Assembly: GCA_963796105.1 (NCBI GenBank)
Contig: CAWCKJ010000009.1
Span: 32,001-96,000 of the forward strand
DNA: 64,000 nt
Direction of reading: 5' to 3'
Source of the DNA: a candidate division FCPU426 bacterium
Lineage (GTDB): Bacteria; Oederibacteriota; Muellerivitia; Muellerivitales; Muellerivitaceae
Positions 3,281-34,651 of this stretch are shown here, piece after piece. The position numbers and the translations under genes are program-made. The notes beneath the pieces were generated by a model, which saw only the letters and a list, made by a program, of their open reading frames with translations, ran no database searches and was not told where the DNA came from. Numbering within the stretch: position 1 is the first letter of the stretch; each line of letters opens with the position of its first letter.

Positions 3281-6200
3281 TTACTGTTTCACCAGAATCT
3301 TGAGCGTTTGCCTGGCGATCACGTGATCTCCGGAGTCCTTCTGCTCGGTCTTGCAGATGTAGAGCCCGCTGGCGATCCCAGCCGCATTCCATGCCGCCTG
3401 GCTGGTCCCTGCAACGCCCCTCACTTCCGTCACCAGTTCTCCCGCCAGGTCGTAAATCTTGACACTCAGGCTCAATCCCGGCACCGCACCCTGGAAGGTC
3501 ACGATCTTGATTCCGTCTGTCAGGGGGTTCGGATAGGCCCAAACCTTGGCAAGGGATGGCTTCGGGTTGTTCACCACCAGAACAGAAGTGACGATCATCG
3601 TCTCCCCGCCCTTCCCGTCGGTGGAATGCACTTCGATAAAGTAGTTCCCGTTGGGTACGACCGTCCCATTGGAAGCGTACCCGTCCCAAACCACCTGTAC
3701 CCCATTATTAGTCTTAATGGTTAGTGTTCCGTCCGTCGGGGAACCCGGCTCTAACACCCCGCTGGACAATTTTACCGAGGTGATCACCACCCCCTGGGGG
3801 TTTTCCACCACGCTATACAGCGACCGCACGATCTCCCCTGCTTCGTTGTAGATGTCGATGGTTACCTTCTCCAACTGCCTGCTCACCACCACGTTCAAGA
3901 TGACGCTCGAGTCCACGCCGAACGAGTCGATATTGTCCACCTTGAGGTAGTAATCCCCGTTGGGGACCGGGCTTCCATCCTGGTTCGTCCCGTCCCACAC
4001 CGTGATGAAGTGGTTCTGATCCATGATTGTCACGGGGCTGTTTAAGCCGTTGATCAAGTTCCCGTTCTGAAATTGCAGGTTCACCAAGGGCTGGGAATAT
4101 TCGGTCACTAGAAGGGTCTTCACCAGCTCCCCCGCCTCGTTGTAAACCCCAATTCGAACCGTGTAGTTCCCCATGACCATGAGGGTCGCGCAGGCCGACT
4201 TTGACAAGGACCCCGGGTAGGAGTAGGCCGCGCAGTTCACCAGGGGCCCACCCTGGGTGAAGGTGTTGATGGTGACAATGTAGCTTAGCTGATAGTTTCC
4301 AGGGGCCAGAGTCGGGAAAGTCCAGTTCATGACCGTCACCCCGCCCGCCACGTTCGTAACCGCAGAGGTCCCGGCCGGAGAAGTCCCGAAGGATACGAAA
4401 CTGCATTGGGCCGGCAGGGGGTCGCTCACCGTCAACCCAGTCACGAAGTTATAGGCCACGTTCACGTTCAGGGTGTAGGTCACAGCGTCCCCCGGCAGCC
4501 CTTGGGGCTCGGATTCCAGCTTTTGCAGGGTCACCACCGCGGTAGGGGTGGGAGTCCAGGTCGGCGTAAAGGTGTTAGTGGGCGTGTTGGTGTTCGTCGG
4601 GGTATAGGTTTTTGTTGGGGTATTGGTCGGGGTCGGCGTATTCGTGGGGGTAAAGGTATTGGTTGGAGTGAAAGTGTTGGTCGGGGTGGGGGTATTCGTC
4701 GGCGTGTTGGTATTGGTTGGCGTGTAGGTCGGCGTAGGAGTGTTGGTATTCGTCGGCGTGTTGGTGGGGGTAAATGTGTTGGTCGGAGTATATGTGTTGG
4801 TCGGCGTATAGGTCGACGTGGGGGTTGGAGTATTCGTCGGGGTGTAAGTGTTCGTTGGGGTGTTCGTCGGGGTAAAGGTATTGGTCGGCGTGGGAGTGTT
4901 GGTCAGGGTAAAGGACGGGGTGGGTGTCGGGGTATTGGTGGGGGTGTAAGTGTTCGTCGCCGTGTTGGTATTGGTAGGAGTGGGGGTATTCGTCGGCGTA
5001 TAGGTGGAGGTATTTGTGTTGGTCGGTGTGGGTGTCGGAGTGTTTGTCTGCGTATTCGTGGGGCTGTTGGTATTCGTCGGCGTGTTGCTATTGGTGTTGG
5101 TCGGCGTGTTCGTCGGGGTATTCGTCGGGGTAAAGGTATTAGTCGGCGTAGAGGTTGGTGTATTTGTCGGTGTACTCGTGGGGCTATTGGTTTTAGTCGG
5201 CGTGTTGGTGTTTGTCGGAGTCGGGGTATTTGTGGGTGTGTAGGTAGATGTACTGGTGTTGGTGGGTGTAGGGGTAGGTGTATTGGTCGGCGTATTCGTG
5301 GGGGTGTTGGTATTCGTGGGAGTGTAGCTGGGGGTGCTGGTCGGGTTATTCGTCGGCGTGCTTGTAGGTGTGGAAGTCGGGGTACTCGTCGAGGTGTTTG
5401 TCGGGGTGGGGGTCGCAGTGTTGGTGTTGGTTGGAGTTGGGGTATTCGTGGGTGTGGGGGTAGGCGTACTTGTGGGTGTATTCGTCGAGGTAAAGGAATT
5501 GGTCGGCGTAGGGGTCGGTGTACTCGTTGGTGTGGAAGTGGGCGTGTTGGTATTGGTGGGAGTGTTTGTCGAAGTGGGGGTCGGGGTCGGAGTGTAAGAA
5601 TTCGTCGGGGTAGGCGTCGGGGACTGAGTTCCGGTCGAGGTCAAGGTGGGCGTCGGAGTGTTTGTTGGTGTGGGTGTCGAAGTGGAGGTATTGGTTGGGG
5701 TGGGGGTAGGCGTGTTTGTCGGTGTATTAGTTGGAGTATTCGTAGGCGTGGGCGTTGAAGTGGCCGTAGGTGTATTGGTCGGTGTATTCGTTGGAGTATT
5801 AGTGGGCGTTAGAGTGGGCGTATTCGTAGGCGTAGGGGTCGGAGTGTTTGTTCGCGTAGGTGTCGAAGTGGAGGTATTGGTTGGAGTTGGGGTAGGCGTA
5901 TTTGTCGGCGTGTTAGTCGAAGTATTGGTCGAGGTGGGCGTAGGGGTGTTCGTCGGAGTTGGAGTAGGTGTGTTTGTCGGCGTATTGGTCGGGGTATTTG
6001 TAGGAGTAGGAGTGAATGTGACTGTGGGTGTATTCGTCGGAGTCGCCGTAGGGGTTGGAGTAAAGGTATTGGTAAAGGTATTTGTCGGGGACTGGGTTCC
6101 GGTTGGAGTAAGGGTGGGAGTCGGCGTGTTCGTCGGTGTCGAGGTCAATGTTGGTGTCGGGGTGGTGGTAGGCGTGTTCGTGGGTGTGGGGGTCGGGGTA

Positions 6201-9200
6201 CTCGTCGGCGTATTCGTCGGAGTAGGGGTGGGAGTGGCCGTAGGGGTCGGGGTCGGAGTGTTCGTGGGCGTGGGTGTAGGAGTATTGGTAGAAGTCGGAG
6301 TGGGTGTTGTCGTAGGGGTCGGAGTGGGCGTATTCGTTGGGGTAGGAGTAGGCGTATTCGTGGGAGTGGGGGTGGGTGTTGTAGTGGAAGTAGGCGTTGG
6401 GGTATTGGTCGGGGTTTTTGTTGGGGTGCTGGTCGGTGTGGGCGTAGGAGTTGTCGTGGGGGTCGGGGTCGGAGTATTCGTCGGTGTGTTGGTTGGAGTA
6501 TTCGTCAGCGTCGGTGTCGGCGTAATCGTGGGAGTGTTGGTCGGAGTAGGTGTCGGTGTGAGCGTCGGAGTAAGCGTCGGTGTATTGGTTGGGGATTGAG
6601 TACCTGTCGGGGTTAGGGTGGGTGTGGGAGTGTTAGTGGGAGTGGGCGTCAAAGTCGGCGTCGGGGTGGTCGTGGGAGTGTTGGTGGGAGTTGGGGTTGG
6701 AGTTTTGGTGGGTGTGTTGGTTGGCGTGGGTGTTGGCGTCGTCGTGGGAGTAGGAGTTGGGGTATTGGTGGGAGTCAGTGTCGGAGTATTGGTGGGGGTA
6801 GGAGTGGGCGTGGTTGTTGGAGTGGGCGTAGGGGTGTTCGTGGGGGTATTGGTCGGGGTATTGGTGGGGGTCGGGGTAGGTGTCGTTGTTGGAGTCGGGG
6901 TCGGAGTATTCGTGGGTGTCCGGGTCGGGGTATTCGTTGGTGTTGGTGTGGGGGTGGTTGTTGGGGTTGGAGTTGGCGTATTGGTTGGGGTATTCGTGGG
7001 GGTATTCGTGGGAGTGGGTGTTGCGGTCGTAGTCGGGGTCGTAGTCGGCGTGTTCGTCGGCGTCAAGGTCGGGGTATTGGTGGGAGTAGGCGTCGGAGTC
7101 GTCGTCGGAGTAGGGGTGGGTGTATTCGTTGGCGTCGGAGTTGGGGTTCTTGTGGGAGTTGGCGTGGGTGTTGTCGTAGGGGTTGGAGTTGGTGTATTCG
7201 TCGGGGTCGGGGTCGAGGTATTGGTGGGAGTGGGCGTAGGGGTCGTTGTCGGAGTAGGTGTGGATGTATTCGTTGACGTCGGAGTTGGGGTTCTTGTGGG
7301 AGTTGGCGTGGGTGTTGTCGTAGGGGTTGGAGTTGGTGTATTCGTCGGGGTCAGCGTCGGGGTATTGGTGGGGGTGGGTGTCGGGGTCGTCGTCGGAGTG
7401 GGAGTAGAAGTGTTCGTCGGTGTCTTTGTCGGAGTGTTGGTCGGTGTCGGTGTAGGCGTAATGGTGGGGGTGTTAGTGGGAGTGGGCGTAGGCGTCAGCG
7501 TTGGAGTGAGAGTCGGAGTATTAGTTGGGGATTGGGTTCCCGTTGGGGTGAGAGTCGGCGTGGGAGTGTTTGTCGGTGTGGGTGTCAAAGTGGGTGTTGG
7601 TGTTGTCGTAGGGGTATTCGTCGGGGTTGGCGTTGGAGTCTTGGTCGGAGTGTTGGTGGGCGTAGGCGTCGGAGTGGTTGTTGGAGTTGGTGTCGGGGTG
7701 TTGGTCGGCGTATTGGTTGGGGTATTGGTGGGAGTTGGCGTCGGTGTCATCGTGGGCGTGGGGGTCGGCGTGTTCGTGGGTGTATTGGTCGGTGTAGGCG
7801 TTGGGGTCGGAGTCGGCGTCCTGGTCGGGGTAGGAGTGGGGGTGTTCGTTGGGGTTGGAGTAGGCGTGTTCGTCGGAGTTGGCGTCGGTGTCGTCGTGGG
7901 CGTGGGGGTCGGCGTGTTCGTGGGTGTATTGGTCGGTGTAGGCGTTGGGGTCGGAGTCGGCGTCCTGGTCGGGGTAGGAGTGGGGGTGTTCGTTGGGGTT
8001 GGAGTAGGCGTGTTCGTCGGAGTTGGCGTCGGTGTCGTCGTGGGCGTGGGGGTCGGCGTGTTCGTGGGTGTATTGGTCGGTGTAGGCGTTGGGGTCGGAG
8101 TCGGCGTCCTGGTCGGGGTAGGAGTGGGGGTGTTCGTTGGGGTTGGAGTAGGCGTGTTAGTCGGAGTTGGCGTCGGTGTCGTCGTGGGCGTGGGGGTCGG
8201 CGTGTTCGTGGGCGTATTAGTCGGTGTAGGCGTTGGGGTCGGAGTCGGCGTCCTGGTCGGGGTAGGAGTGGGGGTGTTCGTTGGGGTTGGAGTAGGCGTG
8301 TTAGTCGGAGTTGGCGTCGGTGTCGTCGTGGGCGTGGGGGTCGGCGTGTTCGTGGGCGTATTAGTCGGTGTAGGCGTTGGGGTCGGAGTCGGCGTCCTGG
8401 TCGGGGTAGGAGTGGGGGTGTTCGTTGGGGTTGGAGTAGGCGTGTTCGTCGGAGTTGGCGTCGGTGTCGTCGTGTGCGTGGGGGTCGGCGTGTTCGTGGG
8501 TGTATTGGTCGGTGTAGGCGTTGGGGTCGGAGTCGGCGTCCTGGTCGGGGTAGGAGTGGGGGTGTTCGTTGGGGTTGGAGTAGGCGTGTTCGTCGGAGTT
8601 GGCGTCGGTGTCGTCGTGGGCGTGGGGGTCGGCGTGTTCGTGGGTGTATTGGTCGGTGTAGGCGTTGGGGTCGGAGTCGGCGTCCTGGTCGGGGTAGGAG
8701 TGGGGGTGTTCGTTGGGGTTGGAGTAGGCGTGTTCGTCGGAGTTGGCGTCGGTGTCGTCGTGGGCGTGGGGGTCGGCGTGTTCGTGGGTGTATTGGTCGG
8801 TGTAGGCGTTGGGGTCGGAGTCGGCGTCCTGGTCGGGGTAGGAGTGGGGGTGTTGGTTGGAGTTGGAGTGGGCGTGTTCGTCGGAGTTCTGGTAGGAGTA
8901 GGCGTTGGCGTGGGAGTTGGAGTGGGTGTATTCGTAGGAGTATTGGTTGGAGTGTTCGTCGGAGTAGGCGTGGGCGTTTTGGTAGGTGTAGGAGTTGGTG
9001 TCGGTGTGTTGGTGGGGGTTGGAGTCGGCGAAGGAGTGGGCGTGGGAGTCGGAGTCCTGGTCGGAGTAGGCGTTGGGGTGGGAGTCGGCGTGTTTGTTGG
9101 TGTAGGGGTATTTGTCGGCGTGGGCGTTTTTGTGGGTGTAGGCGTTGGAGTCGGAGTGTTGGTATAAGTATACGTAAAAGTGGGCGTGGTGGCGCAAACA

Positions 9201-10762
9201 ACGGTGATAGCAATGTTGTTGCTGTTCACGGGCCCCCCGCCCGCCCAACTGGCCACACCCTTGTCCGTGACAACCTGGCAATAATCACTGGTATTAACGC
9301 TGTAGGAACCCACGAAAAACGTGATCGGGGCACAAGCCCCGCCTGGCATGCCGGTAACCAACCAACTCAGGGTTGGATAAGTCGTGGATAAAGGATTGAT
9401 TGTCACAGTGTTGCTGCCCACAGTGATCGTATATTGACTGTAATTGGGCCCCTGGAATGCCCATCCCAAAGGATTGGTGATGTTGTCCGTCACAGTGATT
9501 CCGTTGCCAGGCCCCGCTCCCGCCGCGTTGCACAAATTGATCGTCATCGTAATGGCCCCGGTATCCGGATAGTTAGAGGTAGGGCCACCGGTTGTCTTGG
9601 TCAAGGACGGGTTGGGAGGAACCGGTGTGGGCGTATTGGTCACGGTAGGGGTGTTGGTAAAGCAGGGACGGTTCACCGTCACAGGCGGGTTGGAAGTTTT
9701 AGTACCGCCCGAGTAACCCACGCTCGCAGTATTGGAGATCGTTTGGCATTGGTTCCCCAGCCAATAGTAATCCTCCATGCTGGCCATCAAGGTCACGCAG
9801 GAATTGCCTTGGAAATCACCCCAGATCGCTGTGGCCCCGTTTCCAGCGGGTGCCGGCCAGCTGGCCTGTCCACCTATCAAAGAAACGGGAGATATGGCTG
9901 GAACTAACCAGCCTACAAAACCCAAAGGCGCCGTTCCAACTTGAGAATCAATCAGAGTCACGCCGCCCGACGTCACAGGGCCCCCAGTGTCGCAAACCAC
10001 CACTTGAAATGTCACGAACATGTCATTACTGCCATTGGTGACTTGCGAACCGGCGACAAGGGTTTTCGTGATAGTCAGCGTAGGCGGTCCGGCTGTGGGC
10101 TGGGGTGGTGGGATGGTGGTAGCTTGAGTGTAAAAAAGACCCCCGTTGCAATTGGTGGTGCTGTAATCACCATCAGTGGTGGAAGCTGTGAAGGGTACAA
10201 TTTGGCCCGATACGGGATTGAAAATTCCTTGGCCCCAGCAGCAATAACCCGAGGTAGTGTTGACAACAACCGGGGCAATCCAGGTGCCTCCTGTCCCTGT
10301 GTAATTAGTCGCGTACCAGTTGGTTGCTGGAGGCGAGGCTGGATTTCCAGCACTCACGTAATCCATAGATACACCGGCGGTTGAACTGGTGATCTCGGAA
10401 TGATTCCCTCCCTGGCAGGTGATATCCAAATCCCAGGAGGCATAGAGATTGTTGCAAGCAGTGTTTTGGGTAAAAACAGATACATAAACTTTGGCGCCGG
10501 TTAAAAGCGATGTGGGTACTGTGATACAACCGGGCGGGCAGGAACCAGTTCCATCCCAGTTGCAATAAGCGATTTGGCCCAGGTAAACACCACCCACATA
10601 GACTTGGGACCAGTCATCACTGGCTATACAAATCTGTGCGGAAGTAGGAGTGCATTGGGCCGACAACTTTATAGGAACTCCCAATAAAAACAGTACTCCT
10701 AATATCGTTATGAGTCGAATGCCGTGATATTTTCTTTTTTTACATTCTGATAAACTGCTCAT
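3281..10762 (-). CDS. Giant secreted Pro/Thr-repeat protein (2493 aa) with DUF11, FlgD-Ig and T9SS-CTD-like C-terminus
   Basis: Signal peptide (..IKLSA|QC), Cys-rich head and DUF11-like Ig units. About 1550-aa (X-T)n stalk. C-terminal IYNEAGE/WDG..G.YY repeats and [24 protein letters not shown]. Confidence 0.85.
4541..9190 (-). repeat. Low-complexity (Pro/Asn/Thr-Thr)n coding repeat
   Basis: Thr at almost every second residue; the opposite strand reads as (VG)n. Confidence 0.95.
7731..8854. repeat. Near-perfect 144-bp tandem repeat (~7.8 copies; 48-aa unit)
   Basis: The anchor taggcgtgtt recurs at 7861, 8005, 8149, 8293, 8437, 8581 and 8725. Confidence 0.9.
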
Positions 10763-11269
10763 TAAATCTACCCCGCTTGAATTTTCAAACAGTTTTCAGG
10801 TTAAACTTTCGACAACTGATTATAATCTTTTTAAAAACCATTTTCATGGTAAAAGCTTTAACGATAAATATATGCATATTTTGTACCAATATGGTTACCC
10901 CGAAGATTCTTGAAAGACCTAAAAATCTTCATTTTCCTGCATTTCTCGTTAAACTAGGGTAGTTTTCGGTTGTTCCTTTTGTCAGTTTTCCGAGTTTTTT
11001 GGGCTTTTTTTGACTAGGTTTGAAAACAATGGAATATTCAAGCGGTTTTCTTCGTCGATTCCCATCCCCGCAGAAATGACACATTTAGTTGTTTATTGTC
11101 GATTTTTCCAAATAGATTTTAATCATTAAATGCAGGAAGGTTTTCTTGGGATTATTGAATCAAAGGACAACTGATTCAGTAATAGAGAAGGAGTTTTAAG
11201 ATTAAATAAAATTCTAGAATAACTTTAAACGGCTACACTTGAAAATTTGGTGTTAAACAACCCCAGATG

Positions 11270-14200
11270 TTAATGCTCCACCAGGACCTTAATTGTCTGC
11301 TTGGCAATGATCTTCCCGGTAAGGTCCTTCTGTTCCACCTTGGCGATGTAGAGTCCACTTGAGATTCCAGCGGCGTTCCAGGTCACCCGGCTCGTTCCTC
11401 CAGCGCCTTTCAGCTCCGTCACCAGTTCCCCAGCCAGGTCATAGATCCTCACCGTCAGGTTCACGTTCGTGACAGATCCCTGGAATTCCACTTGGCTGAA
11501 TCCACCGGTTAAGGGGTTCGGATAAGCCCATACTTTCGGTACCGTCTGTTTCGCGTTGTTCAACACCATCACCGACGTCACGATCACCGTCTCCCCGCCT
11601 TTTCCATCGGTCGAGTGCACCTCGATGAAGTATTTCCCGTTGGGTACCACCACCCCGCTTGAGGCGTATCCTGTCCAGATGGCTGTCACCCCGTTATTTG
11701 TCGTAATAATCAGGTTCCCGTCCGTCGGCGATCCCGGCTCCAACACCGTCCCTGACAGCTTCACCCCCGTAATCACCGTCCCTTGAGGGTCCTCCACCAC
11801 GCTGTATAGCGTGTCTACGATCTCACCCGCCTCGTTGTAGATGTCGATCGTCACCTTTTCCAATGACCTGCTCACCACCACGTTCAATACCACGCTCTTG
11901 TCCACCCCGAAGGAGTCCACATTGTCCACCTTCACGTAATAGTCACCATTGGGCACGGGGTTCCCGTTCTGGTCCGTCCCGTTCCATACCGTGATCTGGG
12001 TGTTCTGGTCGTAGATTAATATCGGGTCATTGAGTCCATTAATCAGGTCCCCGTTCTTCAACTGCAGGTCCACCAAGGGCTGGGAATATTGAGTCACCAA
12101 GAGTGTCTTCACCAATTCTCCCGCCTCGTTATACACCCCGATCTTCACCGTGTAGCTCCCCGTCACCATCAATGTCGCGCAGGAACTTAAAGGCGATATT
12201 CCCGGATAGGTCAAGACCGCGCAGTTCACGATCGGTCCCGCCGGCGTGAAACTGTTAATCGACACCGTATAGGTGAGTTGGTAGTTCCCTGGAGTAAGAG
12301 TGGGTAATGTCCAGTTCATCATGGTCACCCCGCCTGATACGGTGGTCACGGCCGAGGTCCCGGCTGGGGAGACCCCAAAGGCCACGAAAGTGCAGTTGGG
12401 AGGAAGTTGGTCCTGCACCACTACCCCAGGGGCGTTGGCATTGGAGACATTCACATTCAAGGTATAGGTCACCATGTCCCCTGAGGAACCGGTTGATTCC
12501 GACTCCTGCTTTTGCAAGGTTAATGCCGCCGCGGGAGTGGGGGTAGGGGTGAAGGTCGCCGTGGGGGTAGGTGTCAGGGTATTGGTATTCGTGGGTGTAT
12601 TGGTGGCTGTAAGCGTATTCGTGGGAGTGGGGGTATTGGTAGGCGTCCTAGTCGGGGTTGGAGTCGGCGTATTGGTTGCAGTATTGGTGGCAGTCGGAGT
12701 GTTGGTATTGGTCGGGGTATTCGTGGCCGTATAGGTGTTGGTGGGGGTGGGAGTATTGGTAGCTGTATTGGTGTTAGTCGGGGTATTGGTATTGGTTGGC
12801 GTATTTGTGTTTGTCGGAGTGTTGGTGGCGGTATAGGTGTTGGTAGCGGTATTGGTATTCGTCGGCGTGGCGGTATCAGTCGGGGTATTGGTATTGGTAG
12901 GTGTATTGGATGTAGTCGAAGTGGGGGTATTGGTTGGGGTGTTGGTGGGAGTGTTGGTATTCGTCGATGTGGCGGTATCCGTAGGGGTATTGGTATTCGT
13001 GGGCGTATTGGTAGGTGTAGACGTGGGGGTATTGGTTGGAGTTGGGGTGGGTGTATATGTTTCCGTCGGGGTGGAAGTGTCTGTCGGAGTATAGGAATTC
13101 GTCGGGGTAAATAAGGGTGTATAAGTCCAAGTAGGGGTATCAGTGTAAGTATCTGTGTACGTGGATGTTGGAGTCTGCGTGGGCGTATTCGTAAAAGTTG
13201 GGGTCGGGGTGGTGGTGGGAGTATTGGTCGAGGTATTCGTCGGTGTTGAAGTGGGCGTGGCCGTTGGTGTGGGAGTAGGTGTCGTAGTTGGAGTACTCGT
13301 AGGTGTTGGGGAAGGTGTCAATGTCGGGGTGACCGTAAAGGTGTTTGTGGGAGATGTCGTCCCGGTTGAGGTATTCGTTGGGGTCGGGGTAACGGTTGGG
13401 GTGGAAGTAGGCGTAGGTGTGGGCGTGGTGGTCGGGGTGGGGGTTGGGGTATTGGTCGGAGTAGACGTAGGCGTATTCGTCGGTGTGGGGGTAGGCGTGG
13501 TTGTGGGAGTTGATGTGGGTGTTGGCGTCGGGGTCCTCGTCGGGGTATTGGTGGGTGTCGGCGTAGGAGTTGTCGTAGGCGTAGGAGTTGGCGTGTTGGT
13601 TGGTGTAGAAGTCGGGGTATTGGTAGGCGTCGGCGTGGGGGTCACAGTCGGAGTGGGCGTGGGAGTAGGGGTTGGGGTCTTAGTCGGTGTGATGGTGGGC
13701 GTATTCGTGGGCGGCTGAGTTCCTGTAGGAGTATTCGTCGGCGTTGGCGTGATGGTAGGGGTTGGAGTCATGGTAGGCGTCGGGGTGATCGTCGGGGTTG
13801 GGGTAGGCGTACGGGTCGGGGTAGAGGTGGGGGTATTGGTCGGGGTTGGAGTTGGGGTCGTGGTTGGTGTCGGAGTAGGTGTATTGGTCGGCGTTGGCGT
13901 CGGGGTTCTCGTGGGGGTCGGTGTAGGCGTTGTCGTTGGGGTAGGTGTGGGCGTATTCGTAGGTGTGGGTGTCGGTGTATTCGTCGGTGTAGGTGAAGGC
14001 GTCAGGGTCGGGGTGGGTGTGGGCGTATTGGTCGGCGTGGGTGTCGGTGTCCTTGTGGGAGTAGGTGTCGGCGTCGTGGTGGGAGTGGGCGTTGGCGTAT
14101 TGGTCGGTGTGGGCGTTGGGGTATTTGTGGGTGTTGGCGTGGGAGTCGTTGTCGGGGTTGGAGTCGGGGTAGGGGTTGGCGTCCTTGTGGGGGTATTGGT

Positions 14201-17149
14201 AGGCGTTGGTGTGGGTGTAATGGTGGGAGTATTGGTGGGTGTCGGCGTCGGGGTTTTGGTCGGGGTGATGGTAGGAGTATTCGTGGGCGACTGGGTCCCG
14301 GTTGGGGTATTTGTGGGTGTAGGGGTAATGGTCGGGGTCGGCGTGGGTGTGGGAGTAGGCGTAGTCGTTGGGGTATTGGTCGTGGTCGGCGTGGGCGTCC
14401 TGGTCGGGGTATTCGTGGGCGTCGGGGTAGGTGTGGTTGTCGGTGTTGGAGTAGGAGTGCGTGTGGGAGTTGGGGTTGGCGTGTTGGTTGGTGTTGGAGT
14501 AGGAGTTGTTGTTGGGGTGGGTGTCGGGGTATTGGTAGGGGTCGGCGTTGGAGTCCTCGTCGGAGTGGGCGTTGGGGTGGTTGTGGGTGTTGGTGTGGGC
14601 GTGTTGGTGGGTGTATTGGTAGGAGTCGGAGTGGGAGTGTTGGTCGGGGTTCGAGTCGGTGTTGGCGTTGGCGTGTTGGTAGGGGTCGGAGTGGGGGTAT
14701 TGGTCGGGGTGGGAGTGGGAGTGGTTGTCGGCGTCGGTGTAGGTGTCCTAGTCGGGGTCGGGGTGGGTGTGTTGGTAGGAGTTGGAGTCGGTGTCGTGGT
14801 CGGGGTTGGAGTAGGCGTGTTGGTGGGCGTAGGAGTTGGGGTTCTCGTAGGGGTTGGTGTCGGGGTCGTAGTGGGTGTAGGAGTAGGCGTATTGGTAGGG
14901 GTCGGGCTAGGAGTAGGGGTGGGCGTGGGGGTGGGTGTCCTGGTAGGTGTGGGCGTAGGAGTTACGGTTGGGGTTGGGGTAGGTGTGTTAGTGGGAGTCG
15001 GGGTGGGTGTTGTTGTGGGTGTGGGTGTCGGGGTACGTGTAGGAGTCGGTGTGGGTGAAGGCGTCGGGGTTGGTGTCGGGGTGTTAGTAGGGGTTGGAGT
15101 CCTGGTTGGCGTAGGGGTCGGGGAAACAGTTGGCGTGGGGGTTGGTGAGGGTGTGGGGGTTGGGGTATTTGTGGGGGTAGGTGTTGGAGTTCTGGTCGGG
15201 GTGTTAGTCGGCGTCGGAGTAGGTGTATTGGTTGGGGTCGGTGTGGGTGTTCGAGTAGGGGTTGGAGATGGCGTTGGGGTCGGCGTGGGGGTTGGCGTAT
15301 TAGTTGGAGTGTTTGTCGGGGTGGGTGTCGGCGTCCTCGTGGGTGTGGGGGTAGGTGAAGGCGTTGGTGTGGGAGTGGGAGTGTTGGTGGGTGTTGGAGT
15401 TGGGGTCCTAGTCGGGGTAGGGGTAGGAGTCGGGGTATTGGTGGGTGTGGGGGTTGGGGTCAGGCTCCTGGTTGGCGTTGGAGAAGGAGTGGGAGTTGGG
15501 GTATTGGTACGGGTAGGAGTCGGTGTATAAGTGAATGTTGGAGTATAAGTGTAAGTATATGTGTAAGTATATGTAAAGGTCGGGGTACTGCACTGTTGGG
15601 TGATGGCTACGGTACTAGTGGTCAATGGACAGCCGGAAATCAATTCGGAATAATCAGTAAATACTGAACAGTTGGCTGGTTGGCTATTGAATTGATAATT
15701 CAATTCCCAAGTTACGCATTGACTGGGTGCCAATCCAAAATAAACAATGGTTGGAGGAACACTGTTATTGCCGCCGGTAGGAGCCGCATAACTGACCCCG
15801 GCACCTGTCACATGAGTGTTTGCGTCATTCATGTTGCAACCGCTGGTATCGCCGCAAAAGCCCAATAAAGCCAGGTTTCCGCCGGCGTATCCCGTGGCTA
15901 CATCCGTAATGGTTACTGACGCTTGGGTAACAGTGCCACTATTGCAAACCGCGATATCGAAAGTAACACCGGTTCCTCCTTGGAAATTGGCCGGAAGGGT
16001 GTTCGCAAGCTTTTTCGATATCGTGAAGGGATTTACTCCGACAGTTACCGCACCTGGCACTCCCGTACCGGCGCTGCTGGTGACCGAGGCCGTGTTGGGA
16101 TAGTTGCCTGTACATGCAGACCCCACCTGCTCAACAACTTTCAAGGTCACCGGAGTCTGACAGGCAGTCAGGTTGCCGACGCTCCAGGTGAGAGTGCCCC
16201 CCGAGTAAGTCGCGGTTCCCTGCCCCGCCGTGGCGCTCGTGTAAGTGAAACAACTCGGCAATGGATCTGTGACTGTGACGTTGGTTTCCGCCGCGATGTT
16301 ATAAACACTCAAGTTCCGGAAAGTGATGTCACCCTGGTTCGCCTGAAAGCCGAAATCACCTGTAGAATAGGTATTCAGGTTGTTGTCCGTGACTGTCAAC
16401 TGCCAGCCCGGTTCCGCCGTGCCCGATTGCCATATTTTCGCTAAAAGCTGGTTGCCGCAAATGCGCACGCGGTAGGAAAACCAGGTGTTGCGCGAAATGC
16501 AGGGAACTGTGGCCTGGGTGGTGGTGGTGTTGTTCCCATCAGTAAAGGAAGTATTGGTACAAGAACTTCCTTGAACTGTGTCGTAGAAAAGCCTGCTGGT
16601 TCCATTACAAGTATCGCTCAACTGCCATTGGTCGGCCCGGAGCATGAAATATTGCTGGCAGTTGGCGTAGCGCGGTATAAAAACAGTGTCGTCATCGCCG
16701 GAGAGAGCTGAATCGGGAAGGCAAGACTCGTAGGTAAATTCAACATTCGGCCCAACTGACACGTTGGATATGATTTGGGGGTATTGGCTTACCGCCGCTG
16801 AGTTGTATGGCCCGTAATTAAGACCCGTGCATCCCCCGGTTTCAGCCCGGATTCCCCAGGAAGCTCCGGTCCAACCATAGGTCGCTCCACTGCTGGCTGT
16901 CCCTGCGTTGGTCCAGCCCGTTGGGACAGATCCGCTGGTTAAAGCATAGGAATCGACTAGGTCCGAGGCTGTGTCGCCTGGTTGCACCACAAGGGTGTAG
17001 GTGATGGGAGCGCAGGGTAAGTAAGAAGTATTGTCCGCGATCTTGGTAACCATGGCGGCGTTCGCAGGCAAGAAGGAACAAACGACTAATGCCAAAACTA
17101 TTAAAAAACTAAGAGACCGGCGAACGGTCAGGTTATCAATTTTTTTCAT
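11270..17149 (-). CDS. Giant secreted Pro/Thr-repeat protein (1959 aa), paralogue of 3281..10762
   Basis: Signal peptide (LPANA|A), DUF11 with an inserted ConA/DUF1080-like domain, and a ~1000-aa (X-T)n stalk. Its last ~420 aa are colinear with the neighbour. Confidence 0.85.
12533..15589 (-). repeat. Low-complexity (X-T)n coding repeat
   Basis: PT/NT/RT/TT alternation visible in the translation. Confidence 0.95.
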
Positions 17150-19636: not shown

Positions 19637-22438
19637 TTATTCCCTCGGACTTTGAAGCATGAAAAGATAATCCCTCAAGGCTTCCCGTTGTTTCTGGGAA
19701 TCCCCATGGAAATATTGCGTAATCGGCGAGGCACCCTGGGGCCAGAAACCAGGCATGCGGGTTCCCGGCATGAGGTCGTCCGGATTTTTCAGCCATTCCA
19801 CCACCCAATCCGGCTTTAAACGCATATGCACTTTCAACAAATCCGGCGCCGCAGAATTGAGATCCGGCGGAATCTTATTACCTAATACGTGGCACTTTTG
19901 GCACTGTAATTTGCCGAACAGGGCATGTGCCTGGGCCAAATCATTTCCCTTCAAGGGGGTCGTGGAATAATCCTTGAAAGGGAATACTTGGTCATCCCTT
20001 AGGTTGAAATAAGATATGACATTGCTGGTGTCCTCGTCATTCCAATGAAAGCTAGGCATGCGAATGTGAAGCCAAGGCCGGATGGCTTGAACATTCGTTA
20101 GAAAATCATGGAACCAGCCAATTTGAACCTTGGAACCTTCCTTGCGAAGGTTGGGGGGAGCCAGTGAAAAATCCAAACCCTCTTTCTCATATATTTGCCT
20201 GATCTTACCACCCTGGTCCTCGATCAGATGGCAACCCCTGCAATTGAACTTGGCGATAACCCGCCGCCCTTTTTCCAATAGGGGTCCATTTCCATGGATA
20301 CCCGCCATCATCTCATCGGGTATGTAGCTGTTGGTTAGTCCCAAGACCGCTGTTACGATCGCATCCCGGTCGGAATCCGAAAGGTAAAAGTTAGGCATCT
20401 TCAGCCGGTCTTGGAAAGCCTGAACCCGGATATCATAAAACTGGCGGGGATTGGAAAGCTTCGCGTTGATAAAAGCCTCGTGTGTATGAGGCAGATTAGT
20501 CAGGCCGAAATCAATCTGGCTAATCTGCTTGGAACCCCATTCGGACAATTCGGTTCCTATACCCTGGGCCGTCTCAAAACCCTGGATTATATGACAGCCG
20601 TAACAACCGTACTTAACCAGACTCTTCTGTCCCAAAAGCTTTTGCTTGTCCGCCTCAGCCATTGCTCTGACCTGGGATTGGGCGGCGGTCTGGCCCATTT
20701 GAATTTTCAAGTAATCCACCAGTAAAGCATCCCGCGCGGTCAGATCGGCTTTTGGGGATTCCAGTTGCTCGAAGTCAATATTTCTCTTTGAAGAGAGATA
20801 AGCGGTAAGATCGGAAGCCTCCTTGGCCGACAACCTCAGATTGGGCATGCGCGTATCGGGATCATAACGGCGGGGATCCTTGATCCAACTGTAGATCCAG
20901 GGAGATGAAAGTTTACTTCCCACGGATGAAAGGTCCGGAGCAAAATTCGCGTGGTAACTGGTGATGTCATCGATTCCGTGGCAGGCCGCGCAGCCCACCG
21001 TCTTGAAAAGTTTCTTACCTTCCACGGCATTGCCGGGAAGGGGCGATTCCATGGGGCGGTAGTCCCCCGAGTGGTCGTAAAGATAATCCACAATGGAAGT
21101 CATCTCGGCTTTGGTCTTGGCGAGACCTTCCTTGTCCTTATTGTTGTCTTGCTGGAAATAACTGGGCATCCGAGCCTCGGGATTGTAGGCGTGTGGATTC
21201 CAAACCCACTTCAGGACAAAATTTCTTTGAAGTTTTCCTTTGATCCTCAGCAGATTGGGCCCAGCTTTCGGCATGTTTTCGAGGTTCTTGACCTTGTGGC
21301 AACCCACGCAACCCCTTACCACCATGAGTTCCCTACCCTTATCCAACGTTGGGGCGAAGTTGACGTGTTGTTGAGTCCCATGGCACTTGAGACAGGAACC
21401 CTCGGTATACTTCAAGGGAAGCATGGGAACGGGCACACCCTCCGGTTCTTTCCAGCCGAATTTCTTTTTCCACTTAAGGGCCATTTCCTCGTTATTAGGA
21501 ACATGAGCGCAGGTATTGAAGTTGACGGCTTCCCCCACACCTCCATGGCAAACCGTACAACCGATCTTATCCAGAGGATGGGGGCTGGTGGCGCCTAGGT
21601 AGAGATCCAAATGGGGGTGGGTTCGGTACGGCTGGGGGGCGTCCTCAAAACCCTTTTGGTCGATTGCCAAGTGGCAGGTCGTACACCTGTCCACCCTCAT
21701 GGTACGGGCAAAGTAAAGATCCTCAGGCAGGTTCTTCAACACAATCTGGTTCACCTTCAGGGTTGGGGACATGAAATCTAAAAGCATCGCGTTCCGGAAT
21801 TGGAAGATAGAGTTGAAACTTAAATTCCGATACTTGGTTTTTAGGAGATTGAGTTTGGCCGTGAGTTTTTTGATCCGGTCAGAGAGGTCATCCCGCCGGC
21901 CGTTTATGGCAGATAATGCTTTCTCGGTCTCTCCCTGGGCCTGTCGAAGCTCAAAAAGCTTCTGGTTCATCCGGTTGGCGTCGTCGATAAGGCCGTTGAG
22001 TTTTTTCTCAAGACCCGGGTTTTCCCGGTGTTCCTTCAGGAAATGCTCGGTATAGTCATATTTAACCGCGTCGATCCGGGCTTTTCCAAGGAGATAATCG
22101 CCGTTCAGCTTGTAGATTTGAGCGTCCTTGAGCGCTATTTCCTTCTGGAAGTTTTCAATTTGGTCACCGTGAGATTTCAAATCATGGTTGGCTTCCTGCA
22201 AGTCAGCTTGTAATTGATTAACCTGGGTCCAGTCCACTTCCGAGTTCACCAGCGGGTACTGCTCCCGGATCTTGGCCCTTTGAAGTCGCATGAAACCGCG
22301 CTGGTAGGCTTTCCAGGGCTTGTTGTAGTCGAACCAGGCCATCAGGACCACGCAAACGAGCAAAGCCATGCTGGACCCAAGAAAAACCTTGGTCAAAGTA
22401 TGGACGTTGTAAACCCGTTCGTCCTTGATATCAGCCAA
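19637..22438 (-). CDS. Octaheme c-type cytochrome subunit of the Rieske/cyt b complex
   Basis: Eight CxxCH motifs (CTTCH, CTVCH, CLKCH, CVGCH, CAACH, CYGCH, CRGCH, CQKCH), an N-terminal TM and a coiled-coil. Confidence 0.92.
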   Translation of the reverse strand: MADIKDERVYNVHTLTKVFLGSSMALLVCVVLMAWFDYNKPWKAYQRGFMRLQRAKIREQYPLVNSEVDWTQVNQLQADLQEANHDLKSHGDQIENFQKEIALKDAQIYKLNGDYLLGKARIDAVKYDYTEHFLKEHRENPGLEKKLNGLIDDANRMNQKLFELRQAQGETEKALSAINGRRDDLSDRIKKLTAKLNLLKTKYRNLSFNSIFQFRNAMLLDFMSPTLKVNQIVLKNLPEDLYFARTMRVDRCTTCHLAIDQKGFEDAPQPYRTHPHLDLYLGATSPHPLDKIGCTVCHGGVGEAVNFNTCAHVPNNEEMALKWKKKFGWKEPEGVPVPMLPLKYTEGSCLKCHGTQQHVNFAPTLDKGRELMVVRGCVGCHKVKNLENMPKAGPNLLRIKGKLQRNFVLKWVWNPHAYNPEARMPSYFQQDNNKDKEGLAKTKAEMTSIVDYLYDHSGDYRPMESPLPGNAVEGKKLFKTVGCAACHGIDDITSYHANFAPDLSSVGSKLSSPWIYSWIKDPRRYDPDTRMPNLRLSAKEASDLTAYLSSKRNIDFEQLESPKADLTARDALLVDYLKIQMGQTAAQSQVRAMAEADKQKLLGQKSLVKYGCYGCHIIQGFETAQGIGTELSEWGSKQISQIDFGLTNLPHTHEAFINAKLSNPRQFYDIRVQAFQDRLKMPNFYLSDSDRDAIVTAVLGLTNSYIPDEMMAGIHGNGPLLEKGRRVIAKFNCRGCHLIEDQGGKIRQIYEKEGLDFSLAPPNLRKEGSKVQIGWFHDFLTNVQAIRPWLHIRMPSFHWNDEDTSNVISYFNLRDDQVFPFKDYSTTPLKGNDLAQAHALFGKLQCQKCHVLGNKIPPDLNSAAPDLLKVHMRLKPDWVVEWLKNPDDLMPGTRMPGFWPQGASPITQYFHGDSQKQREALRDYLFMLQSPRE

Positions 22439-22450
22439 TGAACTTTCCTT

Positions 22451-23536
22451 TCAAATATTAAAAAAGAATTCTGGAATGGAGATGATGTATTTCAGGTTCA
22501 AAACCCACCTCAGGATCATTTTGATCGGAAGCGCCGCCATCATGAGGGACAAGTTGATCAGGATGGCGTAGCGCACGATGCCCATCCGTTCCAACAATCT
22601 ACCAAAGAGAGGCACCATCTTGGTCAAAAGAGGCGGCAAACCAGTAAAATAAAGGATCACGATCAGGAATCCCCAGATCTCCCGAAGAAACCAGTTGTGC
22701 GGCAGGCCCATCCCCAGCCATTTCACCCAAACATATTCTGAGACGTTTACATTGTTCAAGACCACCACTTTATGGATGTCCCATTCCTCAAAGGGACCAA
22801 AAAAGTTCCATGCAGGTCCGCGGAGGAAAGTGCCCAGGAAGATAAGGGTGACCCAAAGGATAAAAAAGCCGAAGAGGAACGGAATGATCGCCATCTTGCG
22901 CTCATTGAAGGTGTAATATCCGTTTCCGGCGGGATTCTTATCAATATAAGGAATGGACATAAGACCCACGATAATGAATGTTGGAAATACCACCCCGGCA
23001 AGCCAGGGGTCGTAATAAACCAGCATCTCCTGCAGGCCCAGGAAATACCAGGGCGCCTTGGAAGGATTAGGAGTCCAAGCAGGCGTAGCAGGCTCCTCCA
23101 GAGGCGCTTTCAGATAGAAGGACCAGGCCAGAAGTGCCACTCCCGCGATGACCGTGACGATAAACTCGATATAAACCAAGTCGGGCCAGACATATGTTTT
23201 CTTGTCTGAAGTCTCCTTTTCCACGGGACCTTGGCCCTGTGCCAGCCGTTTGTCGTTCACAGTCGCTTGCCGGAAGGATAGCCAAGTAAAGAAAGCCACA
23301 GAGAAAACCATGATGAAGATGGGGAAATTATCAGCCTTTGTAGAAATTTCACGGAAATGGCCGTTGAACATGGAGAGTCCTAAAATAGCCAACACACCAA
23401 GGAAAAGTTTCAAGACGAATTTGGGTTCTGTCCATTTGTCTCGGTAATGGATCATGGCCCAAAAACCTGTGACCGAGAAAATGAAATACATATAGGGCTG
23501 GAACAGAAAATTTGTGACTTGAATTAAGTAGTGCAT
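22451..23536 (-). CDS. Cytochrome b C-terminal (subunit IV/QcrC-like) membrane protein
   Basis: VWPDLVY, APLEEPA..TPNPSKAPWYFLGLQE (PEWY-equivalent) and multiple TM helices. Confidence 0.85.
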   Translation of the reverse strand: MHYLIQVTNFLFQPYMYFIFSVTGFWAMIHYRDKWTEPKFVLKLFLGVLAILGLSMFNGHFREISTKADNFPIFIMVFSVAFFTWLSFRQATVNDKRLAQGQGPVEKETSDKKTYVWPDLVYIEFIVTVIAGVALLAWSFYLKAPLEEPATPAWTPNPSKAPWYFLGLQEMLVYYDPWLAGVVFPTFIIVGLMSIPYIDKNPAGNGYYTFNERKMAIIPFLFGFFILWVTLIFLGTFLRGPAWNFFGPFEEWDIHKVVVLNNVNVSEYVWVKWLGMGLPHNWFLREIWGFLIVILYFTGLPPLLTKMVPLFGRLLERMGIVRYAILINLSLMMAALPIKMILRWVLNLKYIISIPEFFFNI

Positions 23537-23581
23537 CTATCCTCAATTAATCGTTTTAAACTTCTCTTCATAAACAGATTC

Positions 23582-24418: not shown

Positions 24419-24486
24419 CTCCTCCCCCTATAAATTCCGGAAATCGAACCCAGAATTCAACCCTTCAATCCTCGTTTATAATCTTT

Positions 24487-34516: not shown

Positions 34517-34575
34517 AAAAAAATCCCCCGACTTCAATTCCGCGCTTAAAACTGTATTTAACAGGTTAAAAAACT

Positions 34576-34651
34576 TGGTGGGGCGTGTAGGATTTGAACC
34601 TACGACCAAGGCATTATGAGTGCCCTGCTCTAACCACTGAGCTAACGCCCC
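34576..34651 (-). tRNA. tRNA-Ile2 (CAU anticodon, lysidine type)
   Basis: GGGGCGTTAGCTCAGTGGTTAGAGCAGGGCACTCATAATGCCTTGGTCGTAGGTTCAAATCCTACACGCCCCACCA. It is ileX-like in sequence and sits downstream of rpoD. Confidence 0.92.

Follow-up and report, generated by a model that had tools for sequence, protein, structure and literature searches.

Two tandem minus-strand genes, P0001 (3281–10762, 2493 aa) and P0002 (11270–17149, 1959 aa), lie in the window, the whole 64,000-nt stretch of DNA analysed here. Their products are probably giant Sec-exported proteins with a type A C-terminal sorting domain (CTD), exported by SprA and PorV relatives and held at the surface so that a Thr-Pro (TP) stalk acts as a tether for the head. 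From the open reading frame (ORF) listing and the sequence, both consist of a signal peptide, a head (A in P0001, B in P0002), a TP stalk and a tail.

Architecture of the two proteins

The N-terminus of P0001 (residues 1–35, 10658..10762) is signal-peptide-like, with a basic stretch, a hydrophobic core, LSA before Q36 and a hydropathy maximum of 2.82 at residue 17; that of P0002 (residues 1–31, 17057..17149) is similarly signal-peptide-like, with ANA before A32 and a hydropathy maximum of 3.22. In the spacer between the genes (10763..11269), a sigma-70-like site running from 10847 to 10819 upstream of P0001 agrees with the consensus at 10 of 12 positions, a consensus match only.

The preliminary description held that the two paralogues have unrelated heads, and blastp of one head against the other returned no match at E ≤ 1e-3. 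The heads are not each unique, as the P0001 head class has five members in the genome and the P0002 class two. Head A begins with a distal Cys-rich beta-sandwich (approximately residues 36–222, 10097..10657), for which no Pfam family was found and which occurs in 115 representative clusters among 1.84e9 proteins. In the AF2 model of head A (pLDDT 84.1) this domain resembles the lectin 6kbj_A (Z 10.4, rmsd 3.0, 126 residues aligned), a moderate match given that unmatched models typically reach a best Z of 7–8, and the sugar-binding module 3w5n_A (Z 9.6); a lectin/CBM-like fold is predicted from the model. The second domain (residues 224–368, 9659..10093) is a CLIPPER/DUF11-like Ig fold by structural match to 9ifr_A (Z 11.4, rmsd 2.5, 117 residues aligned). 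By sequence, residues 369–525 (9188..9658) comprise a short TP linker and a beta-rich segment, on which the local CLIPPER profile reached an iE of only 0.29. Head B (15584..17056) contains a weak 3keto-disac_hyd/ConA-like stretch (residues 206–282; PF06439 at 16.8 bits, under its Pfam cut-off; atlas lead 0.89–0.90), followed by DUF11 domains (Pfam, 49.3 bits).

The stalks are as large and as regular as first described: 1550 aa in P0001 (residues 526–2075, 4544..9187) and 1018 aa in P0002 (residues 523–1540, 12533..15583), about half Thr, with Thr at every second residue. Composition is 50.8% T, 30.3% P and 10.5% N in the former and 50.3% T, 30.8% P and 7.8% N in the latter. Given a Thr at position i, the probability of Thr at i+2 is 0.95 and 0.93, respectively, and at i+1 only 0.06 and 0.07; GC skew also marks the P0001 stalk. 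At the textbook value of 0.25–0.3 nm per residue, the stalks would be extended with a contour length of roughly 250–470 nm, taking repeat lengths from one assembly. Eight copies of a 144-nt (48-aa) unit in the P0001 stalk (7731..8888) are 98% matching and represent a recent tandem expansion. ORFs on the opposite strand over the stalks were rejected as genes: only on the minus strand do the frames begin like a signal peptide and contain Pfam domains, so the others are considered to arise from the repeat itself.

The shared tail ends in a type A sorting domain

The C-termini are colinear, the last 420 aa being 70% identical between the two proteins. HMM searches recovered the proposed order of a DUF11/CLIPPER domain, two FlgD_ig units and a type A CTD, all over curated cut-offs. 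The first domain (4172..4543 in P0001, 12161..12532 in P0002) scored 31.1 and 35.1 bits with DUF11 (PF01345; Pfam cut-off 24.6). The two FlgD_ig-like beta-sandwiches (3575..4165 and 11564..12154) scored 63.3 and 61.9 bits (Pfam cut-off 27), with matches in 3–4 stretches; the AF2 model of the P0002 tail (pLDDT 85.9) places their strands at tail residues 127–220 and 224–323, and the P0001 boundaries are borrowed from this model.

The final unit (3284..3553 and 11273..11542), earlier noted to match the type A pattern, is a true type A CTD by two models at the extreme C-terminus: PF18962 (Por_Secre_tail; 45.5 and 45.7 bits, cut-off 27) and TIGR04183 (38.1 and 37.2 bits, cut-off 23). Alignment agrees for P0001, and in P0002 seven strands are modelled in tail residues 334–418; the RgpB CTD is described as a beta-sandwich of seven strands (PMC4804311). 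The type B model TIGR04131 was rejected, as it reached 18.7–20.7 bits against a cut-off of 35 and matched an Ig unit, not the CTD. When a profile of 15 CTDs was searched against 177,635 PDB sequences, the PorU CTD ranked first (E 0.063) and the translocon-bound NucA CTD 8glk_D second (E 0.65); Foldseek with the whole tail model gave generic multi-Ig matches only.

The P0002 tail CLIPPER domain superimposes on 9ifr_A with Z 15.9 and rmsd 1.8 over 117 of 123 residues (26% identity). Its K8, D41 and N103 (K1547/D1580/N1642 of the protein) fall at or near Lys715, Asp748 and Asn806 of the 9IFR crystal, and K2081/D2114/N2176 of P0001 occupy the same isopeptide-triad positions. We predict an isopeptide bond in this domain, which with its triad is probably a load-bearing base.

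A paralogue family and a general cargo plan

The expectation that other secreted proteins share the tail was borne out: the genome holds 12 tail copies, of which 10 are intact, and the family includes at least five classes of head. The tail family is found in 29 of 30 other genomes of the taxonomic family at 37–47% tail identity, and 14 outside homologues (five of them read) have the same head-stalk-tail plan. Family tails have been homogenised by gene conversion. P0002 shares a tract of about 1600 nt with C4_1016029 at 94–100% nucleotide identity, beyond which identity falls to about 60%; the heads differ and the flanks after the stop codons are unrelated. Heads may be exchanged by recombination inside stalk DNA.

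The plan extends well beyond this family. CTDs occur in 122 frames (9% of the genome), at most eight residues from the stop; 82 of these frames have a TP-rich stalk of at least 100 aa, and the 39 most TP-rich frames of the genome all end in a CTD. A scan of 40 further heads identified 13 as GH5/8/9/12/30/116 enzymes and three as Barwin/DPBB, expansin-like domains. Head, TP stalk and CTD thus form a general cargo plan of this genome, often with cellulase or hemicellulase heads.

The genome also encodes 11 TMEM260-like GT-C paralogues, including one in the window, another 558 nt downstream of a stalk-CTD gene and a third within a cluster of five.

Host and secretion machinery

The suggestion that the host is not an ordinary member of the Bacteroidota agrees with its RpoD relatives and its complement of secretion genes. 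The best named RpoD relatives are from Acidobacteriota, Myxococcota and others (42–51% whole-length identity), and Bacteroidota are absent among the best 80. RpoD (602 aa) has region 1.1; the housekeeping features remarked on before were also recovered, with an EF-Ts of 197 aa and YqeY, MutS2(Smr), DnaG and RpoD in order. GldL, GldM, GldN and Peptidase_C25 gave no match in the genome, and GldM none in the 99 species genomes of the host phylum in our collection, in searches run without a positive control. Candidates for GldK were only FGE-sulfatase-like proteins, at 45–63 bits against a cut-off of 350.

The export route had been proposed to be either T9SS-like or undescribed; the first part stands, with a SprA/Sov ORF over its cut-off and 16 PorV-family barrels, and the second does not. 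The SprA/Sov ORF (C3:212289–218342) scored 207.6 bits against a cut-off of 200; phmmer did not match it to any PDB sequence, and no Pfam family was assigned to it at E ≤ 0.001. SprA matches are present in 92 of the 99 phylum genomes and TIGR04183 matches in all 99. The PorV_fam matches over cut-off in the genome number 16; the PorV equivalog model NF033710 reached at best 67.5 bits, under its cut-off of 250. Eleven of 18 barrels lie 75–291 bp after a cargo gene. P0001/P0002 family genes have no adjoining barrel gene. One 318-aa barrel, itself unpaired, is present as a single copy in 27 of the 31 genomes of the taxonomic family.

Modelling the P0002 CTD with this 318-aa barrel gave a complex score of 0.90, against 0.00 for the best of three controls. 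The pass mark of the method is one that 116 of 157 solved complexes attain, as do 2 of 215 mismatched pairs; the pass here may owe something to resemblance to the solved F. johnsoniae complex. Partner pLDDT was at least 88, three runs agreed in at least 93% of contacts, and the modelled contacts are made through the conserved [12 protein letters not shown] and SGLY stretches and through the invariant K85. A CTD-PorV contact is predicted on this model.

Relation to known systems

Bacteroidota type A cargo, such as RgpB of P. gingivalis, RemZ and NucA of F. johnsoniae and the cellulases of Cytophaga hutchinsonii, resembles the present proteins in having a signal peptide and a TIGR04183/PF18962 domain after an Ig-like domain, a conserved near-C-terminal Lys set against PorV loops (in a solved complex there, in a model here), an encoded SprA/Sov translocon and PorV-family carrier, and cellulolytic heads among the cargo. 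In contrast, the host here belongs to another phylum, GldKLMN/PorKLMN and PorU were not detected in it, the stalks are (T-x)n low-complexity sequence of 1000–1550 aa, and the 16–18 PorV-family barrels, which in many cases are paired with cargo genes, match the family model and not the equivalog.

Pro-Thr linkers are found in secreted cellulases, and the fungal adhesins Als, Flo and Epa consist of a head, an O-mannosylated Ser/Thr stalk and a GPI anchor. Like these and other mucin-like stalks, the present ones are Thr/Pro-rich, probably O-glycosylated spacers between a functional head and the rest of the protein or the cell. Glycoside-hydrolase heads occur in the sister proteins, and the GT-C (PMT/TMEM260-like) family is expanded and may O-glycosylate the stalk. 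Classical PT boxes are, however, 50-fold shorter and lack the strict Thr-x alternation, and unlike Als, Flo and Epa the host is a diderm bacterium and the C-terminal signal is type IX.

CLIPPER (DUF11) fibrillar adhesins, for example Acinetobacter silvestris B9T28_05395 (PDB 9IFR; PMC12617251), share the very long head-stalk-anchor design as well as the CLIPPER fold and isopeptide positions. As described there, the stalk consists of tandem folded CLIPPER/cadherin-like domains and the anchor is OmpA-like, whereas the present proteins have an unfolded-type TP repeat as their stalk, carry CLIPPER in the heads and as a single basal copy, and end in a T9SS CTD as anchor or signal. For SprB type B cargo with PorP/SprF-like carriers, cargo is described as kept on the outer-membrane carrier that received it from the translocon (PMC9143113; PMC10994853), which is the anchoring mode proposed here, and cargo and carrier genes adjoin for many cargo of the present genome; by HMM, however, the present CTD is of type A, and P0001 and P0002 lack an adjoining barrel. 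Abundant CTD-tagged proteins outside the Bacteroidota have been described before. In Poribacteria, TIGR04183-tagged proteins were reported with Por structural genes not found and a pathway that 'remains to be revealed' (PMC3909097), and in SAR406 they were reported without Por machinery (PMC5596340). The present analysis, in contrast, identifies a SprA-family translocon together with PorV-family barrels, and adds an account of cargo architecture and paralogue dynamics.

Proposed surface retention and alternative explanations

Because no sortase was found in the genome, we infer that retention at the surface would depend on an uncleaved CTD held by its barrel. The absence of detectable sortase and A-LPS attachment machinery is also compatible with release, in which the proteins take the same export route and the CTD is then removed by a protease or shed with the carrier; the glycosylated TP polypeptides would serve in free form as enzymes or lectins whose PT linkers are hypertrophied, or would make up a mucin-like extracellular matrix. 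Many sister proteins carry soluble-type cellulase or hemicellulase heads, and PT linkers are classical in secreted cellulases. Bacteroidota type A cargo is itself described as released or LPS-linked (PMC10994853). In the 412-aa tail, however, stalk and CTD are separated by two Ig domains and a CLIPPER domain that is probably isopeptide-locked, an arrangement more in keeping with a load-bearing base than with a discarded signal. The tail is also conserved over the taxonomic family and homogenised within the genome, and the pairing of cargo and barrel genes points to stable partnerships of the kind described for type B cargo. We regard release as possible but rather unlikely.

There is little reason to think that the giant size is partly an artefact, with mis-assembled repeats or decaying genes and proteins that are shorter or not made. 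The near-identity of the eight P0001 stalk units would allow it, as would the frame change that splits two of the 12 family members at the stalk-tail junction; the stretch was present in no RNA run, and the sole DNA run shares 0.06 of sampled words. Yet the ten intact paralogues have open frames of 1635–2493 aa, about 45 CTD frames have stalks longer than 700 aa, open frames of 1100–2300 aa with the same tail at the end are found among relatives from other assemblies, and the assembly comprises 16 contigs at 96.8% completeness. Least likely of all is that the CTD is only a structural Ig-like module, the proteins leaving by another route (type II secretion, lysis) and the SprA-like and PorV-like genes serving other functions: searches of the genome found no motor, ring or sortase of the canonical kind, and one PorV_fam match also appeared in the control genome of Bacteroides thetaiotaomicron, which is not known to have a T9SS, but the terminal position of 122 CTDs over HMM cut-offs, the co-occurrence of CTD and SprA over the phylum, the coincidence of conserved CTD motifs with the predicted barrel interface and the barrels directly after cargo genes all argue against it.

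In the tethered display that we favour, P0001 and P0002 would be members of a 12-gene family of Sec-exported proteins ending in a type A CTD. Their predicted path across the outer membrane is the SprA-like translocon, with a PorV-family barrel as the bound carrier, after which the tail would likely keep the cargo on the cell surface. The new elements are this family of stalked display proteins and the tail cassette that they share, in which a probably O-glycosylated Thr-Pro tether of 1000–1550 residues would keep a probable sugar-binding head far from the cell.

Architecture of the giant stalked proteins

The two giant open reading frames described beforehand are real and lie in tandem on the reverse strand of the window, at 3281–10762 (P0001, 2493 aa) and 11270–17149 (P0002, 1959 aa), each comprising a head, a Thr-Pro stalk and a tail. 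Both N-termini combine basic residues with a hydrophobic core and a small-x-small site, and a Sec-signal-like N-terminus is seen in nine of ten full-length paralogues, in each case as judged solely by a hydropathy heuristic. The stalks span residues 526–2075 of P0001 (1550 aa) and 523–1540 of P0002 (1018 aa). Both consist of 50% Thr, 30% Pro and 8–10% Asn, with nearly no charged residues or Cys, and they are strongly periodic: given Thr at position i, the probability of Thr is 0.93–0.95 at i+2 and 0.06–0.07 at i+1. No folded repeat domains were found between head and tail of either protein, the stalk being low-complexity (T-x)n sequence throughout. The P0001 stalk contains a 144-nt unit repeated eight times with 98% matching, a recent tandem expansion that explains some of the difference in length between the two proteins. 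Long plus-strand ORFs across the stalks were rejected as genes and are by-products of the repeat. No RNA runs containing the stretch were listed, and the single DNA run shares 0.06 of words.

The common tail and its type IX sorting domain

The last 420 residues of P0001 and P0002 are colinear and 70% identical. The preliminary description had read this tail as a DUF11 unit followed by FlgD-like Ig units and a T9SS-like C-terminal sorting domain (CTD), and profile searches bear this out, every model scoring above its curated cut-off in both tails: for P0001 and P0002, respectively, DUF11 (PF01345) gave 31.1 and 35.1 bits (cut-off 24.6), FlgD_ig (PF13860) 63.3 and 61.9 bits (cut-off 27, in 3–4 stretches), Por_Secre_tail (PF18962) 45.5 and 45.7 bits (cut-off 27) and TIGR04183 38.1 and 37.2 bits (cut-off 23). 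The CTD match ends 11–18 residues before the stop codon, and the alignment reaches the last residue. With C-terminal matches above cut-off, both proteins are type A CTD cargo.

An AlphaFold2 model of the P0002 tail, built with 24 aligned tails as input (pLDDT 85.9), shows four beta-sandwich domains on a string, two of them in the FlgD_ig region. Its CTD, tail residues 334–418 (the last 85 residues), has seven strands, the number described for the RgpB CTD (PMC4804311). When a profile of 15 CTDs was compared with all PDB sequences, the top two matches were type IX CTDs, both weak: PorU residues 1056–1102 (E 0.063) and 8glk_D, the NucA CTD chain of the substrate-bound F. johnsoniae translocon (E 0.65). 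A phmmer search of the tail against PDB sequences returned no match. Foldseek searches with the whole-tail and head A models gave just generic multi-Ig, adhesin and viral-glycoprotein matches (TM ≤ 0.27); fold searches of the four-domain tail model are dominated by its non-CTD domains, with PorU (6za2_B) at Foldseek rank 41.

The first tail domain (residues 1–124) has a CnaA-like fold and superposes on the CLIPPER crystal structure 9ifr_A with a Z score of 15.9 (rmsd 1.8 Å, 117 of 123 residues, 26% identity), and the next matches are isopeptide-bonded Gram-positive pilin domains (Z 13–15). CLIPPER is the new name for DUF11; as described for the 9ifr crystal, whose construct starts at residue 708, an isopeptide joins Lys715 to Asn806 with Asp748 nearby (PMC12617251). 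Lys8, Asp41 and Asn103 occur in both tails; among the 24 aligned tails Asp41 is invariant, and Lys8 and Asn103 are each at least 90% conserved. Since these residues fall at or near the crystal's Lys715, Asp748 and Asn806 (domain positions 8, 41 and 99), we predict from sequence conservation that the CLIPPER base is isopeptide-locked.

Export machinery

We asked which type IX components accompany this cargo. Of the SprA, PorV, PorU and GldKLMN set that a T9SS-like route would draw on, SprA and the PorV family were found, while GldL, GldM, GldN, the C25 peptidase, GldK and PorU were not matched as such. The SprA/Sov candidate is a 2017-aa ORF at C3:212289–218342 (207.6 bits with TIGR04189, cut-off 200), which has no Pfam match and no phmmer match among PDB sequences. 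SprA-like ORFs are present in 92 of 99 genomes of the phylum, including 58 of 60 of high quality, and TIGR04183 matches occur in all 99. In the surrounding locus (C3:205001–225000), divergent LptF/LptG genes lie upstream of the SprA-like gene, and downstream follow a 1618-aa protein, which matches fn3 weakly, and a double-zinc-ribbon protein.

The PorV family model NF033709 was passed by 16 matches (best 175.1 bits, cut-off 90); the PorV equivalog NF033710 stayed below its cut-off in the genome (best 67.5 versus 250). Eleven of 18 PorV-family barrels lie 75–291 bp downstream of a CTD gene, forming cargo–barrel pairs, as exemplified by the barrel at C2:36932–37747 that follows C2_37885_45090; the longest Thr-Pro tract (2401 aa) belongs to a protein in one such pair. 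P0001 and P0002 are not paired with any barrel gene. An unpaired barrel of 318 aa has the best PorV-family score (175 bits) and is single-copy in 27 of 31 genomes of the taxonomic family, at 54–84% identity. A complex model of this barrel with the P0002 CTD scored 0.90, versus 0.00 for the best of three controls; 116 of 157 solved complexes reach the mark for such models, as do 2 of 215 mismatched pairs. The partners have pLDDT values of 88 or more, and agreement between runs is 93% of contacts or better. On the CTD side the modelled interface comprises the conserved [12 protein letters not shown] and SGLY stretches together with Lys85, which is invariant in 15 of 15 CTDs. In the solved F. johnsoniae complex a conserved CTD lysine (Lys1110 of RemZ) is described as bonding to PorV loops (PMC10994853). 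Because a like complex has been solved in that organism, the model is read as evidence of likeness, not of binding.

Searches for the motor and ring returned no match to GldL, GldM or GldN in the genome, and none to GldM in the 99 genomes of the phylum. The only GldK matches were FGE-sulfatase-like proteins at 45–63 bits (cut-off 350). The comparison set for these searches, and for Peptidase_C25 (PF01364), which also gave no match in the genome, comprised 14 genomes that all lack a T9SS and thus offered no positive control; motor, ring and sortase are accordingly described here as undetected rather than absent. In canonical systems PorU, a C25-type sortase, removes the CTD, and cargo is attached to A-LPS. 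The PorU model NF033707 was matched just through its own CTD part (model positions 962–1095). One of four weak GldK-model matches lies in the window itself, a 517-aa FGE-sulfatase-domain protein at 33125–34678(-) whose 61.1 bits do not make it a GldK equivalent.

The tail family, its heads and their apparent recombination

A tblastn search of the 4.98-Mb, 16-contig genome found 12 copies of the whole tail, which answers how many proteins carry it genome-wide. Ten of these end intact frames of 1635–2493 aa. The other two sit after overlapping TP-rich frames and are therefore taken as members broken by a change of frame. These two, at C4:630440–635949 and C6:516–4203, are split into overlapping frames at the stalk–tail junction, where the reading frame has changed or the repeat contains a sequencing error.

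The heads of P0001 and P0002 show no similarity to each other by blastp at E ≤ 1e-3. That each head is unique was rejected, as two classes recur in the genome: head A in five genes (49–74% identity) and head B in two (83% identity). The family tail is further combined with one expansin-like DPBB head (39.7 bits) and two single heads. Head A of P0001 belongs to no Pfam or NCBIfam family, gave no usable match in the ESM atlas and is represented by 115 clusters among 1.84 billion proteins. In its AlphaFold2 model (pLDDT 84.1, pTM 0.79) a distal Cys-rich sandwich (about residues 36–222) resembles the mushroom lectin 6kbj_A (Z 10.4, rmsd 3.0 over 126 residues) and the sugar-binding modules of alpha-L-rhamnosidases (3w5n_A, Z 9.6; 6gsz_A, Z 8.6). 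We therefore predict a lectin-like distal domain, an assignment that stays a prediction because the structural matches are moderate. Residues 224–368 of P0001 are CLIPPER-like (Z 11.4), and a local CLIPPER profile was not significant against residues 400–514 (iE 0.29). Head B of P0002 has DUF11 domains (49.3 bits) following a 3-keto-disaccharide-hydrolase/ConA-like stretch, the latter a sub-threshold match (16.8 bits) with an ESM atlas lead at 0.89–0.90.

At the protein level the P0002 tail is 95–98% identical to those of six paralogues; the P0001 tail is the outlier at 70%. P0002 and its paralogue C4_1016029, encoded on different contigs and bearing different heads, share 94–100% nucleotide identity over their last ~1600 nt, into the stalk, whereas beyond this tract identity drops to ~60% and the flanks after the stop codons are unrelated. 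Judged from the sequences, this pattern is characteristic of gene conversion or recombination, with the breakpoint inside the stalk, and a common tail under different heads supports the earlier proposal of interchangeable heads.

Beyond this genome the full tail is matched by 14 proteins (37–45% identity), and the five inspected all have the head, Thr-Pro stalk and tail arrangement, among them head A and an expansin-like head. Of 30 further genomes of the taxonomic family, 29 have the full tail, as does the order's only other genome; the copies often form tandem arrays, and up to 18 matches are listed per genome. Other families of the phylum gave partial tail matches only. As to the preliminary description's remark that the housekeeping genes do not look like those of Bacteroidota, the relatives of RpoD come from several phyla at just 42–51% whole-length identity, in a searched set from which records of the organism's own lineage were apparently left out.

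Stalked cargo across the genome

TIGR04183 matched the genome 48 times, with 47 matches above cut-off. An iterated profile, run to convergence and retaining matches that end within 8 residues of the stop, identified 122 CTD frames, which make up 9.0% of the genome. TP-rich sequence of at least 100 aa occurs in 82 of the 122, the TP tracts of CTD frames total 3.3% of the genome, and all 39 of its most TP-rich frames have a CTD at the end. In most stalk–CTD proteins just a bare CTD of ~90–110 aa follows the stalk; the tail of 412–415 aa sets the family of P0001 and P0002 apart from this bare-CTD cargo.

Among the other frames, 43 have a stalk of at least 300 aa, and the head scan covered 40 of these, three being omitted. 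Thirteen are glycoside hydrolases (four GH5, four GH8, two GH12 and one each of GH9, GH30 and GH116), three are Barwin/DPBB heads, six have other domains (PA14, PPC, Sortilin-Vps10, DUF4082, NHL and IgGFc_binding) and 18 have no family. Several family genes lie in arrays with other stalk proteins, C3_465854, for example, between a GH116-headed and a Barwin-headed one, and the window itself contains GH3, GH92, GH127-like and epimerase genes. The picture is one of a plant-polysaccharide degrader that carries enzymes and probable binding modules on long Thr-Pro tethers with a type IX tag.

Eleven TMEM260-like GT-C paralogues (653–738 aa) are encoded in the genome, one of them in the window. Two adjoin stalk genes: one follows the stalk–CTD gene C8_25076_30532 at a distance of 558 nt, and the other is inside the cluster at C11:5386–35240(-), where it stands among five tandem stalk–CTD genes of 1550–1694 aa whose heads (366–422 aa) have no Pfam match. 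The copy in the window (DUF2723/TMEM260-like, 59494–61620) is in a row on the reverse strand with genes for a TPR protein (61620–62342) and a Wzy_C O-antigen-ligase-like protein (62312–63598). We consider the TMEM260-like proteins candidates for the enzymes of stalk O-glycosylation.

Several other genes of the window, all on the reverse strand, are recorded here. The GH3 gene at 26939–29255 is apparently split into ORFs of 233 aa (Glyco_hydro_3 profile positions 82–172) and 529 aa (positions 191–313, together with the GH3_C and Fn3-like domains), and may reflect a frameshift or a pseudogene. A respiratory cluster at 19637–25266 encodes a 933-aa multi-haem cytochrome c, a 361-aa protein without assignment, a cytochrome b and a Rieske protein. 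An IS1595-family (ISXO2-like) transposase gene (57651–58538) adjoins one for a chlorite-dismutase-family protein (58676–59440).

Proposed route and display

We propose that the proteins would leave the cytoplasm through Sec and that their stalks are probably O-glycosylated in the periplasm, as suggested by stalk composition and the 11 TMEM260-like paralogues. A PorV-family carrier is then predicted to capture the CTD at the SprA-like pore, and after exit the uncleaved CTD–barrel pair would keep the protein on the surface, where CLIPPER and Ig domains could form a stiff, possibly isopeptide-locked base and the Thr-Pro tract a tether of 250–470 nm. Taken as a whole, the chain from Sec export through glycosylation and carrier and pore to surface retention is the reading we favour, with some reserve. 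Its main rival follows the same export route and has the proteins then released into the medium. The two part at the last step, where retention is suggested by the failure to find a sortase and by the parallel with type B cargo, and we judge release rather unlikely. The favoured chain supplies no mechanism by which the carrier and its cargo would exit the pore without GldLM as energy chain; this release is described as the step that requires energy in F. johnsoniae (PMC10994853).

In fibrillar adhesins, as described, a stalk that normally consists of tandem folded repeat domains projects an adhesive domain (PMC9210967). P0001 and P0002 would work in the same way as these and as yeast adhesins, but they lack a folded-repeat stalk and are not typical members. 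The CTD, SprA and PorV components all belong to families already known, and TIGR04183 tags without Por genes have been noted in accounts of Poribacteria in 2014 (PMC3909097) and of SAR406 (PMC5596340). Reviews and recent structural papers confine type IX secretion to Bacteroidota or at most the FCB superphylum and hold that it needs a proton-driven motor (PMC10994853), and a 2025 paper calls SprA 'FCB-specific' (PMC12611786). Literature searches turned up no account of long Thr-Pro stalks on bacterial type IX cargo. The present contribution is stalked display as the rule for the cargo of a genome, a tail cassette of 12 genes built on a CLIPPER base, the concerted evolution of that cassette, and a single-copy carrier candidate.

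More tentatively, we suggest a phylum-wide, stripped-down type IX system with a SprA-like pore and many PorV-like barrels, operating without GldKLMN and PorU. In this taxonomic family it might plant a glycosylated Thr-Pro brush, hundreds of nanometres long and tipped with enzymes or lectins, each CTD held in its carrier barrel, for a cellulosome-free attack on plant walls; heads and tails would recombine in the stalk DNA while gene conversion kept the tail uniform. We hold this broader proposal to be doubtful as a whole.

These observations describe a phylum with pore and carriers present and motor and sortase undetected, and a genome of which 9% is CTD-tagged and 3.3% Thr-Pro stalk. Three of the components, namely the CTD, its single-copy carrier barrel and the CLIPPER base, are compact and clearly delimited enough for study in T9SS hosts that grow in culture. 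If the proteins are exported and retained as proposed, the outer-membrane core of the T9SS would be able to function and to anchor its cargo independently of the known energy chain; bacteria would possess a display of enzymes far from the cell that resembles mucins and yeast adhesins, and the repetitive stalk DNA would be a built-in recombination site for head shuffling.
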